Positions 9,601 through 34,964 of a DNA stretch of 64,000 nt are shown here, one piece after another (the stretch's first letter is position 1; the number at the start of each line of letters is the position of its first letter). The stretch lies in the IMG/VR virus record IMGVR_UViG_3300045988_042432, one strand, 5' to 3'. This stretch comes from a virus. The notes beneath the pieces are model-generated. The model saw nothing but the letters and a program-made list of their open reading frames with translations, searched no databases and was not told the DNA's origin. The position numbers and the translations under genes were made by a program.

Positions 9601-9954
9601 ATGAATCAGAATGCAGTTAATTCTTTAAGGAATGCCAAGAGGCATATTCTTATTAGCGATGTTGATAAGTTCAATAGCCATTTATTGTATTACATATTAA
9701 ATGTTATATATGGAACACATGACCATATTAAATTAAATACGATACGTGAAAGACTTGAACGTGAGCTTAAATGGTCATTGGATGAGCATATTCCTGATAA
9801 GGATGTAATTAGAGAATGGCTTGACAATGATTACCCTCTTATATGCATAACAGAGTTATCGTTTGACAGTTGTATTAAACTTGCCAACGATTTCCCAGAT
9901 TATGAAATTGTAGTTTATAGTTGGATGAAACATGAAGGGAACTTACCATTTTAA
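9601..9954 (+). CDS. hypothetical protein (117 aa)
   Basis: Track ORF. Confidence 0.6.
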   Translation: MNQNAVNSLRNAKRHILISDVDKFNSHLLYYILNVIYGTHDHIKLNTIRERLERELKWSLDEHIPDKDVIREWLDNDYPLICITELSFDSCIKLANDFPDYEIVVYSWMKHEGNLPF

Positions 9955-10090
9955 ATGGAATAAAAATAACTCCTAGGCTATTAAGTCTGTAATGGGTACG
10001 CTACTCAATGTAGCACAGGAAGATACTGATAGCTTTTTTGTTCAGGTTTGAGAGACCTCCTGGCATGAGAGGATAATCATGCCGTTCTAT

Positions 10091-10609
10091 GGGCCTAGAT
10101 TTGGTTTTGACAGGCGATTACAAGTTAGTAAGACGTGTAGAGTTCGTACCAACTCTTTAATAATGATACAGCAATTTAAGTGGAAACACTGAAGTAAGAA
10201 TGGCAGCCTAAGCTGCTGGCTTATCTATTAATTTAGCTCTAAGTCGGGTTAATTGGAGAGACCTAGAAACAGAAGAGGTGTGGGAAGAAGCGTATAGAGC
10301 AGCCCACTTAACTTGAAAGCCAAAGGTTAGTAAAGCTGAAATCTCCACTACCTATCTATGGGTTACAAATAGAAACGTTCTCCAACGTAAATGGAGTGGT
10401 GGAGCGACCGTTCGGTCAAGCCCAGTTTGGTAGTTTGTGAACAACTAAGTCGTAGCCCTACGAGGGAGACGTAATTGGTGAATTAACACTCGGCTTCTTA
10501 GTAAAACTACCTACATGCTGAACTCAACAGCTGATGTAATAAAATAGAGACACACGTAATCTTATTAATGAGGGTTGTTTGGACGGCGGTTCGACTCCGC
10601 CTAGGTCCA
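10091..10609 (+). ncRNA. ssrA: tmRNA (transfer-messenger RNA)
   Basis: 5' end is GGGCCTAGATTTGGTTTTGACAGG. The 3' T arm is GGCGG-TTCGACT-CCGCC followed by TAGGTCC-A. Acceptor GGGCCTA/TAGGTCC has G3:U70. Tag ORF 10182-10210 is GGA AAC ACT GAA GTA AGA ATG GCA GCC TAA, giving GNTEVRMAA*. Confidence 0.8.
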
Positions 10610-10637
10610 CTATTATTAACGTTTAAATATCAATTTT

Positions 10638-10991
10638 ATGGGATTATTTATTATTGCAGTGATTGTTTTACTTATTTGTGTATGTCTTTCGCGAGTAGGG
10701 TCTAAAGACCTAAGAGAAGTTGCAGTGGCAGTTGAGATTGTATTCTCAATGGCAACAGTTGTGGCAGCGATTTCATTACCATTCGCTATTAAGGGAAATA
10801 CTCAAATTATTGGCAAGCATGCAGTGCTAAAAGAAACATTGGAGGCTACTGATAGGAAGAATTACTATCTTATATCTAGTGATGTTTTAGAGCTCAATTA
10901 TACTATTATGAATCATAGGAACTTTGTAGACAATTTCTGGATTGGGATATGGTATGATAAGGACGTAGCTAAATTGGAACTATTAAAATGA
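10638..10991 (+). CDS. membrane protein (117 aa)
   Basis: Track ORF with two N-terminal hydrophobic helices. Confidence 0.6.
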   Translation: MGLFIIAVIVLLICVCLSRVGSKDLREVAVAVEIVFSMATVVAAISLPFAIKGNTQIIGKHAVLKETLEATDRKNYYLISSDVLELNYTIMNHRNFVDNFWIGIWYDKDVAKLELLK

Positions 10992-12487: not shown

Positions 12488-12557
12488 CCACTATTGACGA
12501 ATAGTGGTAGCAAAACTTGGTCTGAAGAACCAGTAGACATATTCCGGAGTATGTCTA
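12488..12557 (+). ncRNA. candidate structured RNA: three adjacent hairpins including a tRNA-Phe-like anticodon arm
   Basis: First hairpin CCACTATT-gacg-AATAGTGG (12488-12507). Second TTGGT-CTGAAGA-ACCAG (12517-12533). Third TAGACATA-ttccggag-TATGTCTA (12534-12557). All lie in a 380-nt ORF-free gap. Confidence 0.3.
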
Positions 12558-12865
12558 TGACTTAAAGGCTATATCAAAGAGTTGAAACCTGTATCTATTC
12601 GAACAGTAGGAGTTCACCTGATTAAGCATCAGAAAACAGTAGTGCAAATCTACTATAGATATTGTGTAAGAGAGAATCTACACGGTCTGTATTATATAAT
12701 CAGCATGCAGATAGGTCACCAAGCAAACCTCTTTCCTGCCTGGTCAAGTGTGCATTACGGTCTGTAAGTGGCGAGCGGGTTAACGTATGTCCGATTGCCG
12801 TAATGCCGCTTGTTTATTGTTTAGAATAAAGAAAGACTCTCATAACAATAAATTTAAACAAAGAG

Positions 12866-14560
12866 ATGGAAATGAAAGGAGCACAAAGGCCAAGGAGGCC
12901 TTACCCTAATGCCGCACGTCAAAGGCGGGATGAGAATAAACCTAAGTTTGTGGATAATAATCAGTTATTCATAGACCAGTTTGTTAATCTTAAGAAATGT
13001 CTTCAGCCACGTACCTACGTGCAAGTGGCTAAAGATATGTATCCTTTATGGAAAGCTAATCCATTACTATGTACTAAGTTTACTGCATATACGAGAATGA
13101 TAACTCGTAAATGTAGAATAATTACCCCGGAAGGAGTTATACAACTTGATACACAGCAAGGAGAAGGTTTGAAGAATGAAGGTATAATGAGAATGTTGTG
13201 GTTGGCAATCTATCACAAACCCACATTCCATGCCAACATTGCTTATTTTGCAGCAGCTGGATGCTGGAAAGATTTCATTACTATGATGGCTTTAGATGTT
13301 CAACTCCATGGCTTTAAGCACAGATTGGATTGGGACTTCTTCAAGAAAGTCATATTCGCAGGTCTTGCCAACGGTCAGACATGTGATTTAGTAAAGAAGT
13401 ATCTTCCTCGTGTTCGTTCCAGTGTTGCATGTAAGACAGATGAGGCAAAAGCACGTAATACAGTAGCCAAATTCTTGGCGGAAGGCCTTTATGGTAAACC
13501 TAAGGATGAAGGAGACTATTCAACCTATCGTAAATATAGGAAGATGAAGAATAGCGGGAAAGCAGCCCAATGGCAGCAGTTAATCAGTCAAAAGAAATTC
13601 TTGGAAATCGATTTTGACACTGTTACTGGAAAGGCACTGGCACAGCTAGTAGGCTCTAAATTCCTCAAACATCAAGGTCTTAAAGAGAAGTATCAGAACT
13701 GGTTGAAGAACCGTAAGAAGCCCTCTAATAGCGGATTTCTACATACTCTGTTCAAACCATACGGATTGGATAAAATTGCCGAAGAGATTCCAGAATTTAT
13801 GGAAACTTCTATTAATGCAAGTTTCAATGTATTTGTTGATAATGCTAAACGCAATAGAGTAGCTCCGTTGTTGGTAGTAAGAGATATAAGTCATTCTGCT
13901 AATGGTGAGATAGAGAATAGCGAAACATCTGCTTACAGTTTGGGTAAAGTATATGCTTTATATCACTCTGAATTACTTCCTACAATATTCAAAAACTCCT
14001 ATGCCGTGTTAGAAGATAACATGGTTCTACATAAGTTCAAAGGTCAGAATGTCATTGAGAAATGGAAAGCTGACAAAGAAGAAGCATTATGCCAGAATCC
14101 TTCTATTATTAATATAGCAGAAATGCTGTGTAAAATGAAAGAAGATTATGGTGTGGATGAAGGAGAGTTCCCTAGAGGTTGTGTGGTAATTACTAACCAT
14201 ACATATTTTACCAAGTTGAACAACCAAGCATTCGTGGAATTTAAGCAAAGACTGCTTAAAGCAAATTTCAGTAAGGAATTTGTAAGAGCATTCAAAGTTA
14301 TCATTTGGAGAGTTCCTTTAGCATATAAGGGAAGACCTAATGTGGCTTTGGTTCCAGGAGTGTCAAATTGCTTCTTAGTAAATGGACTTAATAATTCAAC
14401 ATCCTCATTTATTACTGGAGAGAAGAGGTTCCAGGTGCCTAAAACCACTAGAGACATCTTTAAGCATGCTATGAATCAAGAGTTGCTTAATATGATGATT
14501 CTAGAGAAGGATGTTGTCAAGAAGAATGCAAGCGTGCAGAAGAAGCCTGTGAAGGTCTAA
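12866..14560 (+). CDS. TROVE/DUF2828-like protein with vWA-type MIDAS motif (Ro60-like architecture)
   Basis: Track ORF of 564 aa. AAAGCWKDFITMM resembles the GW-KDLL motif of TROVE/DUF2828 proteins, from memory. LLVVRDISHSANG is a DxSxS MIDAS-like motif. Confidence 0.4.
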   Translation: MEMKGAQRPRRPYPNAARQRRDENKPKFVDNNQLFIDQFVNLKKCLQPRTYVQVAKDMYPLWKANPLLCTKFTAYTRMITRKCRIITPEGVIQLDTQQGEGLKNEGIMRMLWLAIYHKPTFHANIAYFAAAGCWKDFITMMALDVQLHGFKHRLDWDFFKKVIFAGLANGQTCDLVKKYLPRVRSSVACKTDEAKARNTVAKFLAEGLYGKPKDEGDYSTYRKYRKMKNSGKAAQWQQLISQKKFLEIDFDTVTGKALAQLVGSKFLKHQGLKEKYQNWLKNRKKPSNSGFLHTLFKPYGLDKIAEEIPEFMETSINASFNVFVDNAKRNRVAPLLVVRDISHSANGEIENSETSAYSLGKVYALYHSELLPTIFKNSYAVLEDNMVLHKFKGQNVIEKWKADKEEALCQNPSIINIAEMLCKMKEDYGVDEGEFPRGCVVITNHTYFTKLNNQAFVEFKQRLLKANFSKEFVRAFKVIIWRVPLAYKGRPNVALVPGVSNCFLVNGLNNSTSSFITGEKRFQVPKTTRDIFKHAMNQELLNMMILEKDVVKKNASVQKKPVKV

Positions 14561-16866: not shown

Positions 16867-16938
16867 GCCCCATTACTTCAGTGGTAGAAGAGCAAATTCT
16901 AAACTTGTATGGCGTTGGTTCGAGTCCAACATGGGGCA
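16867..16938 (+). tRNA. amber suppressor tRNA, anticodon CTA
   Basis: 72-nt cloverleaf. Acceptor GCCCCAT/ATGGGGC. D arm CTTC-AGTGGTA-GAAG. Anticodon arm GCAAA-TTCTAAA-CTTGT with CTA at 16899-16901 and an A31:C39 mismatch. T arm GTTGG-TTCGAGT-CCAAC. Confidence 0.8.
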
Positions 16939-16940
16939 CT

Positions 16941-24821: not shown

Positions 24822-24909
24822 GGAGAGTTGGGTGAGTGGCTTAAACCAGTCCCCTGCTAAGGGACCGAACCTCAAAAGGGTTCCGCTGGTTCGAATCCAG
24901 CACTCTCCG
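24822..24909 (+). tRNA. tRNA-Ser(GCT), class II
   Basis: Acceptor GGAGAGT/ACTCTCC with G73. Anticodon arm GTCCC-CTGCTAA-GGGAC. Long variable arm. T arm GCTGG-TTCGAAT-CCAGC. Confidence 0.9.
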
Positions 24910-24961
24910 CGCTGGCTAATAAGAGTTTGCGAAAATCATTATTAACCTAATTATTAGAATT

Positions 24962-29320: not shown

Positions 29321-30388
29321 ATGATAAATATAGTTTTAGGTAGTTTCTTCGGCGATTGCGGTAAGGGACAGACAGTTCACAACTTATGTAACAAGTACAT
29401 AGGTAAGCGAGAGTCTGTGTTAGTAGTCAGGTTTAGTGGTGGACATCAAGTAGGACATACTGTAAAGCATGGAGACATGATGCACACCTTTAGTAACTTT
29501 GGCAGCGGAACCTTACTTGGAGTGCCGACGTACTGGTCCGAATACTGTACTGTAGACCCAATTACCTCTATGTTGGAGGGTGCAGACTTAGCTAAAATGG
29601 GAGTTCATCCCATTGTTCAGTATCACCCTCACTGCCAAGTTGTAATTCCCTTCGATGTCTATTCCCAAGTTAATAACGAAGAGAACTTACGACATGGTAC
29701 TGTAGGTACAGGGTTTAAAGCTTGTTTGGACCGAGTTAAGGCAGGATACAGCTTAACAGTTGTAGATTGTATGAATCCTTACATACTGCGTGAGAAACTA
29801 AATGCCATAGTGGATAACTATTACAACATGTCTAGTAAATATCCTTCGATAGACCTAGACAACTGGTGTAGGTTAGCACATGCTTATTTCTTACATACAG
29901 GTACGGTTAATGAAGATTGCTTGTTGAATTATGATAACCTAGTGTTTGAAGGTTCACAGGGAATATTGCTTGACCAAAGATTCGGCATAATGCCTTATTG
30001 TACTCCGTCTAATACAACTTCACAAAACGCTTACGAGCTGTTGCGGAAAGCAGGTATACGTAAAGAAATCCAAACTTGTTATGTAACTCGTCCTTATATA
30101 ACAAGGCATGGTAACGGCCCGTTTCCTTCTGGAATGTCTGTTAGGGATGTCGATGACCCTAATAATAAGTTCAACGATTTCCAGAAGACGCTTAGGGCTA
30201 TTGATTTCGACAAAGACCTATTCGCACACAGTGTACGCATTAACCGTTCATTTAAGGTTCCTTATAGGAATGAACGAACGGAGAAATTGTACGTATCACA
30301 TTGGGATGAAGCATCTGACGCAGAGCGAGAAATGCTAGCAAATTTATGGATGTCGATACAGCCCATGATATTCGATAAGTTAGTTTAG
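29321..30388 (+). CDS. adenylosuccinate synthetase-like enzyme (short PurA/PurZ-family homolog)
   Basis: Track ORF of 355 aa. GDCGKGQ matches PurA [16 protein letters not shown] matches [34 protein letters not shown] matches [36 protein letters not shown] matches TRVGAGPFPT. The TTGRRRR motif is absent. Confidence 0.7.
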   Translation: [355 protein letters not shown]

Positions 30389-34568: not shown

Positions 34569-34964
34569 ATGTTTGTAAAATTTGTAAAAGATGATAAGGT
34601 AGTACAAGAGGTGTCAATCTCATCAGAAATGATTCCGTTTCCTACTGATACAGTAGTTCTAGAAGAAGGCAAATTTACTGTAGAGAGTAGAGAATATGAC
34701 ATTCTTGACGGAACTTGTACAGTTATTTTAGACCAACAAATTACTTGGACAGAGCATCCTCAAGAGTACAATAACGCAATGCTTGCTTATAAGAAGCGTT
34801 GGAATAACACAATTGATTTGTCATGTGAAGACTTCTTTAAGATGAAACAGTTTGTATCGACTGGTTCCAAACTGCAAGCAGTTAAGCATGTAAAAGAATC
34901 TGCTAAATGTGGTTTAAAAGAAGCTAAGGATTTTGTTGACACTTATTGCGATTACGTATTATGA
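34569..34964 (+). CDS. hypothetical protein (131 aa)
   Basis: Track ORF. Confidence 0.65.
   Translation: MFVKFVKDDKVVQEVSISSEMIPFPTDTVVLEEGKFTVESREYDILDGTCTVILDQQITWTEHPQEYNNAMLAYKKRWNNTIDLSCEDFFKMKQFVSTGSKLQAVKHVKESAKCGLKEAKDFVDTYCDYVL

Follow-up and report, generated by a model that had tools for sequence, protein, structure and literature searches.

A full-length tmRNA gene with an expanded pseudoknot domain in a probable large tailed phage of the human gut

Transfer-messenger RNA (tmRNA) is the main ribosome-rescue system of bacteria, and to our knowledge only a few phage groups carry a tmRNA of their own. Here, we describe a tmRNA gene in the viral record IMGVR_UViG_3300045988_042432, of which we analyzed a stretch of 64,000 nucleotides (nt), hereafter the window. 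Positions 10091-10609 of its plus strand form a complete one-piece tmRNA (ssrA) gene, 519 nt long up to the discriminator A. The gene is real and full-length, and very likely it is functional and carried by a large tailed human-gut phage whose host most likely belongs to the Bacteroidota. A first-pass annotation had proposed a phage-encoded tmRNA with a divergent tag ending in -MAA and an unusual length; this proposal is supported by an Infernal match, a pseudoknot model, the phage context (27 tRNAs, replication genes of phage type, and homologues in IMG/VR viral contigs), and a length comparison with Bacteroidota tmRNAs. The length of about 519 nt and the coordinates of all the sequence features it listed were confirmed on reading the sequence.

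Identity and conservation of the tmRNA gene

The Rfam tmRNA model RF00023, searched with Infernal as the first-pass annotation had suggested, matches positions 10091-10612 with 85.8 bits (gathering score 47, E = 7.2e-32). The match, well above anything expected by chance, spans the full model (positions 1-374 of 374), and its alignment places the consensus resume codon GCA on the GGA at 10182. The parts of the gene stand in the order of a standard one-piece tmRNA and are not circularly permuted; the model for the permuted two-piece tmRNA (RF04321) gave only partial sub-threshold matches (23 and 12.5 bits, gathering score 47).

The gene is one of a family. Exact-word scans with four conserved stretches yielded homologues at more than 100 loci in IMG/VR gut viral contigs among the matches listed, and nhmmer confirmed a homologue in 88/88 loci of the first scans and in 14 further loci of a later scan. 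These include at least 71 distinct full-length copies of 507-601 nt. For pair counts, 58 distinct copies were aligned and a model of 116 pairs was built from the window copy, with pseudoknots explicit. P1 was judged on a separate local alignment and excluded from the 116 pairs; the MAFFT alignment had shifted the first acceptor bases by 2 nt. Standard pairs fill 86.9% of the cells of this model, versus 37-45% when the 3' partners are slid by 1-3 columns. Of the modelled pairs, 46 change on both sides (slid controls: 8-19), with a covariation score of 0.230 (slid controls: 0.05-0.07). Minimum-free-energy folding yields P1, P2, P3, helix 5, and the T arm (z = -2.0). The features of the gene up to helix 5, together with the 3' strands that close it, are as follows.

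10091-10609 (+): tmRNA from mature 5' end to discriminator (RF00023); the 5' end reads GGGCCUAGAUUUGGUUUUGACAGG
10091-10097 (+): acceptor stem 5' strand GGGCCUA, paired with 10602-10608; G10093:U10606 is G3:U70
10602-10609 (+): acceptor stem 3' strand UAGGUCC and discriminator A10609
10585-10601 (+): T arm, GGCGG, loop UUCGACU, CCGCC (stem 10585-10589/10597-10601)
10111-10138 (+): P2 helix 5' strand (P2a 10111-10116, P2b 10125-10132, P2c 10133-10138)
10552-10581 (+): P2 helix 3' strand, partner of 10111-10138
10139-10169 (+): putative pseudoknot 1 (PK1), with P3 AGAGUU 10139-10144/AACUCU 10151-10156 and P4 GUA 10146-10148/UAC 10167-10169
10182-10211 (+): tag frame GGA AAC ACU GAA GUA AGA AUG GCA GCC UAA, resume codon GGA, tag (A)GNTEVRMAA
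10202-10217 (+): helix 5, GGCAGC, loop CUAA with the stop codon, GCUGCU (10202-10207/10212-10217); 100% paired, 1 compensatory pair

The 5' end, the T arm, and the acceptor strand form the tRNA-Ala-like domain with G3:U70 that the first-pass annotation had recognized. In the family alignment, the T stem is 100% paired with compensatory changes in 4/5 pairs, and three of the seven acceptor-stem pairs have compensatory changes, with variants such as GGGCCUA/UAGGUCC, GGGCUUG/CAAGUCC, and GGGCCAU/AUGGUCC. G3:U70 is present in 58/58 copies and the discriminator A never changes, in contrast to the covarying remainder of the acceptor stem. CCA is not encoded after A10609; the following bases are CUA, with only the C of CCA present. 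P2 is paired in 97-100% of cells, and both sides change in 11 of its pairs (4 in P2a, 6 in P2b, 1 in P2c). Within PK1, the 6-bp P3 is invariant across the family, and the 3-bp P4 shows one compensatory switch (GUA/UAC versus GCA/UGC) in the 28 copies that share this type of PK1.

The internal frame noted earlier, encoding GNTEVRMAA followed by UAA, is present at 10182-10211. It is open in 71/71 distinct copies, with 9-11 codons and no start codon. Besides GNTEVRMAA in the window, the family encodes the tags GNTTYRMAA, AEIDYNRMAA, AERSD[YV]RMAA, AERSEYRMAA, ATYSEVRMAA, AEIAPVRMAA, GETEGYLRMAA, GETEGFRMAA, A[TN]TSVRMAA, GNTVYRMVA, GNTEVKMAA, and GNTRVKMAA. The C-terminal (R/K)M(A/V)A is fixed in all of them, while the N-terminal part and the length vary freely. 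The last Ala codon is GCC, GCU, or GCG, and the stop codon is UAA or UGA, never UAG. A fixed ending written with synonymous last codons fits selection on the peptide, though the RNA constrains it too: helix 5 has GGCAGC as its 5' strand, and two copies carry a compensated C-G to U-A change that turns Ala into Val.

The first-pass annotation had given GE(T/N)NYALAA as the tag of Bacteroides. This is borne out by a scan of bacterial genomes with back-translated GE[TNK]NYALAA-stop, which gave at least 120 matches, almost all in Bacteroidota, and by the tags that ARAGORN reports in Bacteroidota controls (GENNYALAA or GETNYALAA). In RMAA, the fourth residue from the C-terminus is Arg where the host-type YALAA has Ala, and the third is Met where YALAA has Leu.

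The expanded pseudoknot domain

As the first-pass annotation had required of a tmRNA, the stretch between 10211 and 10580 accommodates a pseudoknot scaffold, and the model of it is supported by covariation. Its elements are listed here.

10218-10245 (+): variable hairpin directly 3' of helix 5 (GGCUUA...UAAGUC); outer stem 88% paired, 2 compensatory pairs
10246-10551 (+): expanded pseudoknot domain, equivalent to PK2-PK4 (covariation model)
10246-10250/10260-10264 (+): hairpin, its loop 10255-10259 pairing with 10342-10346, 4 compensatory pairs
10280-10307 (+): hairpin of the window-copy model
10318-10328 (+): small hairpin, both-side changes in 3 pairs
10347-10350/10397-10400 (+): helix enclosing a hairpin (10355-10373) and a compact H-type pseudoknot
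10376-10379/10384-10387 and 10380-10383/10393-10396 (+): the compact H-type pseudoknot, 2 and 1 compensatory pairs
10406-10417 (+): hairpin, 2 compensatory pairs
10429-10436/10504-10511 (+): long helix, 1 compensatory pair
10513-10537 (+): hairpin, 2 compensatory pairs

At least two pseudoknotted pairings are supported by covariation, 10255-10259/10342-10346 and the one at 10376-10396. In the first of these, by eye on the alignment, a relative pairs its loop as GGAAGG/CCUUCC where the window copy has GGAGA/UCUCC. A possible pairing of AGUU (10424-10427) with AACU (10521-10524) is invariant across the family. Other parts are specific to the subfamily of the window copy and 39-57% paired across the family: the helix 10347-10350/10397-10400, the hairpin at 10355-10373, and the contact between the loop of this hairpin and 10419-10423. 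The strand ending in GUGGUG has its partners placed differently in other modules (by eye), and the interior of the 10218-10245 hairpin differs in sequence and length between copies. The equivalence to the canonical PK2, PK3, and PK4 is drawn for the domain as a whole.

For the length comparison, each RNA was divided into four parts, with boundaries at the resume codon, the stop codon, and the P2 3' strand, with the following results.

Seven Bacteroidota tmRNAs: 5' part 95-97 nt, tag frame 30 nt, middle 209-214 nt, 3' part 59 nt
Window copy: 5' part 91 nt, tag frame 30 nt, middle 340 nt (10212-10551), 3' part 58 nt
Phage family (58 copies): middle 324-419 nt, 3' part 59-61 nt (boundary slightly different)

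At 519 nt, the window gene is about 120 nt longer than the roughly 395 nt of Bacteroidota tmRNAs, and the pseudoknot domain, which runs from the stop codon to the P2 3' strand, holds the whole excess (110-205 nt in the family). In the alignments, the extra length sits at four or more separate sites, where hairpin modules are present, absent, or swapped between copies. For example, one relative (L004, 4938-5487) has the same tmRNA as the window except for a 31-nt insertion after 10423. This module, AGGTTTGGAAGCGTCAGCTTCTGAACCTTTA, folds as a 12-bp hairpin and is found in 8/58 copies from different subfamilies; by eye, it occurs twice in one copy, and GGTTTGG/AGTTTGG repeats flank it. The tmRNA family looks like a mosaic in which modules may have been exchanged between lineages. 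In all, these comparisons demonstrate what the gene is, how it is built, that it is conserved across the family with compensatory changes, and where its extra length lies.

The Bacteroidota ssrA genes, such as those of Bacteroides sp. GD17 and Segatella copri, resemble the phage gene in the sizes of the 5' part, tag frame, and 3' part. They have a GGN (Gly) resume codon, as do many phage copies, they share the D-loop analogue UGGnUUUGACAG with the phage gene, and CCA is not encoded in either. The Bacteroides sp. GD17 acceptor (GGGCUUG...CAGGUCCA) is of the GGGC...GUCCA type (C4:G69), close to some family members, and by eye the Bacteroidota and phage copies also appear to have in common a compact pseudoknot enclosed by a helix that ends in ...GUGGUG. 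However, the phage gene differs from Bacteroidota ssrA in its middle part (340 nt, 324-419 nt in the family, versus 209-214 nt), in a tag that ends in RMAA rather than YALAA, and in having the stop codon in the loop of helix 5. Rfam tmRNAs in the scanned Bacteroidota are 368-401 nt long and score 122-160 bits, versus 85.8 bits for the phage gene. Sequence similarity is confined to about 35 nt at the 3' end, where a phage family profile run against 120 Bacteroidota tmRNA loci gave weak matches. A recent capture from the host was rejected on these weak and short matches, and the limited 3'-end similarity indicates that the gene is old in the phage lineage.

Proposed function and alternative readings

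The best-supported function is that of an ordinary trans-translation RNA supplied by the phage, with SmpB probably provided by the host. We infer expression, charging, partnership with SmpB, tagging, and a benefit to the phage from sequence, with the mechanism modelled on the established trans-translation pathway. RNase P would cut the transcript at the 5' end; the 3' end would be trimmed and CCA added, an addition that we propose because only ...UCCA-C is encoded. The host alanyl-tRNA synthetase would charge the RNA with alanine via G3:U70, and the charged RNA would enter stalled ribosomes whose mRNAs are broken or have no stop codon; its SmpB partner is most likely that of the host, as no smpB was found in the window. 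Translation would resume at GGA (10182), add (A)GNTEVRMAA, and end at UAA (10209-10211), and the freed ribosome would leave behind a nascent protein marked for C-terminal proteolysis. The phage may benefit by keeping ribosomes available while host mRNA is destroyed and translation is taken over, and the tmRNA would act alongside the 27 tRNAs and the L7/L12-like protein encoded in the window (see below).

Several observations weigh against this reading of the gene, its function, or its host. The first concerns detection: the first-pass annotation had relied on ARAGORN or Infernal to call a tmRNA, and the ARAGORN tmRNA routine in fact called none in the window. Infernal does call the gene, and controls show that the tool itself fails, as ARAGORN in tmRNA mode called 3/88 family loci versus 101/120 Bacteroidota control loci. 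The three called copies are the shortest (515 nt), and each has its tag misplaced. A length limit alone was rejected as the cause of the miss: deleting 4-68 nt from the window copy in silico (down to 451 nt) restored no call. The miss is a failure of one program's heuristics on this phage family and says nothing against the gene. The window copy also scores lower with Rfam than bacterial tmRNAs do (85.8 versus 122-160 bits), because its middle domain aligns poorly. PK1 is the weakest part of the structural model; the other 30 copies have a shorter variant in which P4 is not evident, and P4 has only 3 bp where it is present.

The remaining points concern the tag, the protein partner, and the host. 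Conservation of ...AGAAUGGCAGCC may partly reflect the RNA constraint of helix 5 rather than selection on the peptide. No SmpB domain was found by Pfam in the 76 plus-strand open reading frames (ORFs) of the window, which covers about one-third of a genome of about 185 kb, and tblastn found no smpB in the window or in the flanks of the family loci, using a hand-typed E. coli SmpB query and no positive control. The host assignment is indirect. Enrichment of Shine-Dalgarno sequences was not seen upstream of the 76 plus-strand window ORFs (5/76 versus 8.8 +/- 2.8 at random positions), and the regions upstream of these ORFs are A/T-rich. Bacteroidota initiate translation without relying on Shine-Dalgarno sequences, a known habit of the phylum, so the missing enrichment fits a Bacteroidota host.

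The alternative readings start with a role in stop-codon reassignment, in which an amber suppressor tRNA causes TAG read-through or stalling and the tmRNA clears the stalled ribosomes. The first-pass annotation had raised such a link to code switching and had placed a suppressor tRNA in the same island. That tRNA is present, with anticodon CUA at 16867-16939 (+), 6 kb downstream in the same tRNA-rich region. No tag in the family stops at UAG, and tmRNA is known to target ribosomes that meet unassigned UAG codons in recoded E. coli (PMC6207430). Still, the standard code gives dense coding across the 64-kb window, TAG read-through joins no major ORFs, and there is no signal of in-frame TAG recoding in the window, where 10/72 long frames end in TAG. 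The code-switching link is without support in the window because no in-frame TAG recoding is visible there, and any recoding would lie in late genes outside it. Moreover, phages that are not recoded, such as mycobacteriophages and phage G, also carry tmRNAs (PMC4131195). We consider this role unlikely.

We think it still less likely that the family represents a clade of abundant gut phages with re-engineered trans-translation, in which the conserved extra domains would recruit a factor of the phage or the host and the invariant RMAA would give rescued proteins, both host and phage, another fate than YALAA does, for example, escape from a particular protease or preferential delivery to it. Such a system could couple to the amber suppressor tRNA. 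If true, it would amount to a viral takeover of protein quality control, beyond simple ribosome recycling.

Related to this is a tmRNA-shaped competitor or re-router, which would titrate host SmpB or swap the YALAA degron for RMAA; host adaptors or proteases would treat this ending differently, or a phage factor would read it, with the expanded domain serving as a platform for that factor. The idea draws on the (R/K)M(A/V)A ending, invariant in the family and unlike the ALAA of Bacteroidota, on a middle domain that is 110-205 nt larger than in bacteria and has strongly conserved blocks, and on the failure to find smpB in the window. It also has a precedent in mycobacteriophage DS6A, whose molecule of little more than a tRNA-like domain may titrate SmpB (PMC4131195). 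However, every copy retains the complete messenger part, with its resume context, open frame, and helix 5, none of which a pure decoy needs, and -MAA is chemically close to -LAA. Some bacterial tmRNAs have -AMAA endings. No candidate phage partner protein was identified either; the neighboring ORFs have no Pfam match. This makes a competitor or re-router distinctly improbable.

Some tmRNA genes contain group I introns, and the first-pass annotation had considered an intron or a single extra pseudoknot as the source of the extra length. An intron or inserted selfish element would leave a mature RNA of normal size, which might account for 519 nt against about 395 nt in Bacteroidota and for a 31-nt hairpin module that is present or absent between otherwise identical copies. 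The source is neither of these, as the expansion consists of hairpins throughout the PK2-PK4 domain. A permissive Rfam search found no intron family or other known RNA inside the gene, with no intron family at 9900-10800 even at E <= 10; the excess lies in short hairpins at four or more sites rather than in a single block, and several extra helices covary like structural RNA. We regard this reading as highly implausible. Least plausible of all is a non-functional remnant, such as a chance pickup of host ssrA, an attachment-site fragment, or a decaying pseudogene: many elements use ssrA as an integration site, and 3' fragments of it can be carried by integrating phages, but this gene is full length rather than a 3' fragment, its weak match of about 35 nt to Bacteroidota speaks against recent capture, and at least 71 diverged copies retain it with compensatory changes.

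Phage context and known phage tmRNAs

We return to the gene as a probable trans-translation RNA and to the phage that carries it. The contigs of the family are mostly 93-192 kb long, many of them about 175-192 kb. In GenBank phages, relatives were found in only two unannotated human-faecal fragments (MT837398 and MT836666), with identities of 71% and 82%, and no cultured phage in GenBank has a relative of the tmRNA gene. The window is an early or replication-like region with DnaB-type and other helicases, exonucleases, RNase H, and HNH endonucleases, and a 670-amino-acid (aa) protein is shared with large myoviruses, for example, Bacillus phage TsarBomba and Vi1-like phages. From its gene content, the window looks like the replication region of a large tailed phage. 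A crAss-like affiliation was considered and is unsupported, as the 670-aa marker protein matches large myoviruses.

ARAGORN predicts 28 tRNAs in the window, or 27 after dropping one minus-strand call that overlaps tRNA-Ser and has no Rfam match. Two of its calls overlap, Ser-GCU at 24822-24910 (+) and Arg-UCG at 24849-24925 (-); Rfam lists neither at gathering score, and one or both may be spurious. In two relatives (L072 and L078), a tRNA gene begins 7 nt past the tmRNA discriminator. The tmRNA of these relatives sits in a tRNA array and is probably co-transcribed with it, which fits shared processing.

A hairpin precedes the gene.

10061-10084 (+): 5' leader hairpin (GGCAUGAG / loop AGGAUAAU / CUCAUGCC-type), ending 6 nt before the mature 5' end

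In the window and in relatives (L053:198-244, L001:6362-6408, and L009:1668-1712(-)), such hairpins pair about 8 bp around a loop of roughly 8 nt, often GAGNAUAA, and end 4-7 nt before the tmRNA 5' end. Three unrelated stem sequences occur in different members, so that the shape is kept and the sequence is not. In the window, the hairpin overlaps a sigma-70-like promoter match (TTGAGA-18-GATAAT, 10048-10077, 10/12 positions); such sites are no commoner here than in shuffled sequence. The hairpin may be a processing or transcription signal and presumably belongs to the gene unit.

Other features of the window were also noted. A very strong, full-length match to RAGATH-34 RNA (120.9 bits; gathering score 60.7) lies at 12488-12595 (+). 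Some 270 nt downstream of it is a 564-aa ORF (12866-14560), for which PHROG 850 ("RNA-binding protein") is the sole annotation and Pfam gives no match. The ORF at 29321-30388 (+) matches PHROG 1211 (E = 6e-45, labeled "2-aminooxy adenylosuccinate synthetase") and Pfam Adenylsucc_synt (5e-33). We take PHROG 1211 to be the PurZ-type adenylosuccinate synthetase family, and on this basis the phage may replace adenine by 2-aminoadenine (Z-genome). A 131-aa ORF at 34569-34961 (+) has an L7/L12 C-terminal domain (Pfam E = 1.9e-05), with a weak tblastn match at 34863-34943.

Phage-borne tmRNAs as such are already known. They were reported earlier from Bxz1-group mycobacteriophages and Bacillus phage G (PMC4131195), and huge phages carry tmRNAs that were found with ARAGORN (PMC7162821; Al-Shayeb et al. 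2020). Because of these reports, the element is less novel than the first-pass annotation implied. As here, the earlier examples are complete ssrA genes in large, tRNA-rich, lytic-type genomes with a presumed role in translation support (PMC4131195, PMC7162821). They were found by ARAGORN or the tmRNA-website tools, whereas the gut family is nearly invisible to ARAGORN, and the gut family further differs in its phages of about 95-190 kb, their likely Bacteroidota host, and its strongly expanded, modular pseudoknot domain. Some huge phages carry smpB, unlike the 64-kb window, in which none was found. The DS6A molecule is, like the window gene, phage-borne, tmRNA-derived, and equipped with an alanine-type tRNA-like domain (PMC4131195), but it has little beyond that domain, whereas the window gene also has P2, a putative PK1, the tag frame, helix 5, and an extensive pseudoknot domain. 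In the searchable literature, which is incomplete, we found no account of this gut-phage tmRNA family or of tmRNAs of such size.

What is new is thus the structural variant. The family is unusual in its expanded modular pseudoknot domain, its fixed tag ending that is not of host type, its size, and its invisibility to ARAGORN. Since most phage annotation pipelines (e.g., Pharokka) use ARAGORN, which misses the family, surveys probably undercount phage tmRNAs. For gut metaproteomes, the ...RMAA ending offers a concrete peptide marker of phage-driven trans-translation. With a pseudoknot domain 1.5 to 2 times the usual size, put together from swappable hairpin modules, the family is a natural test of how far the tmRNA pseudoknot domain can grow.

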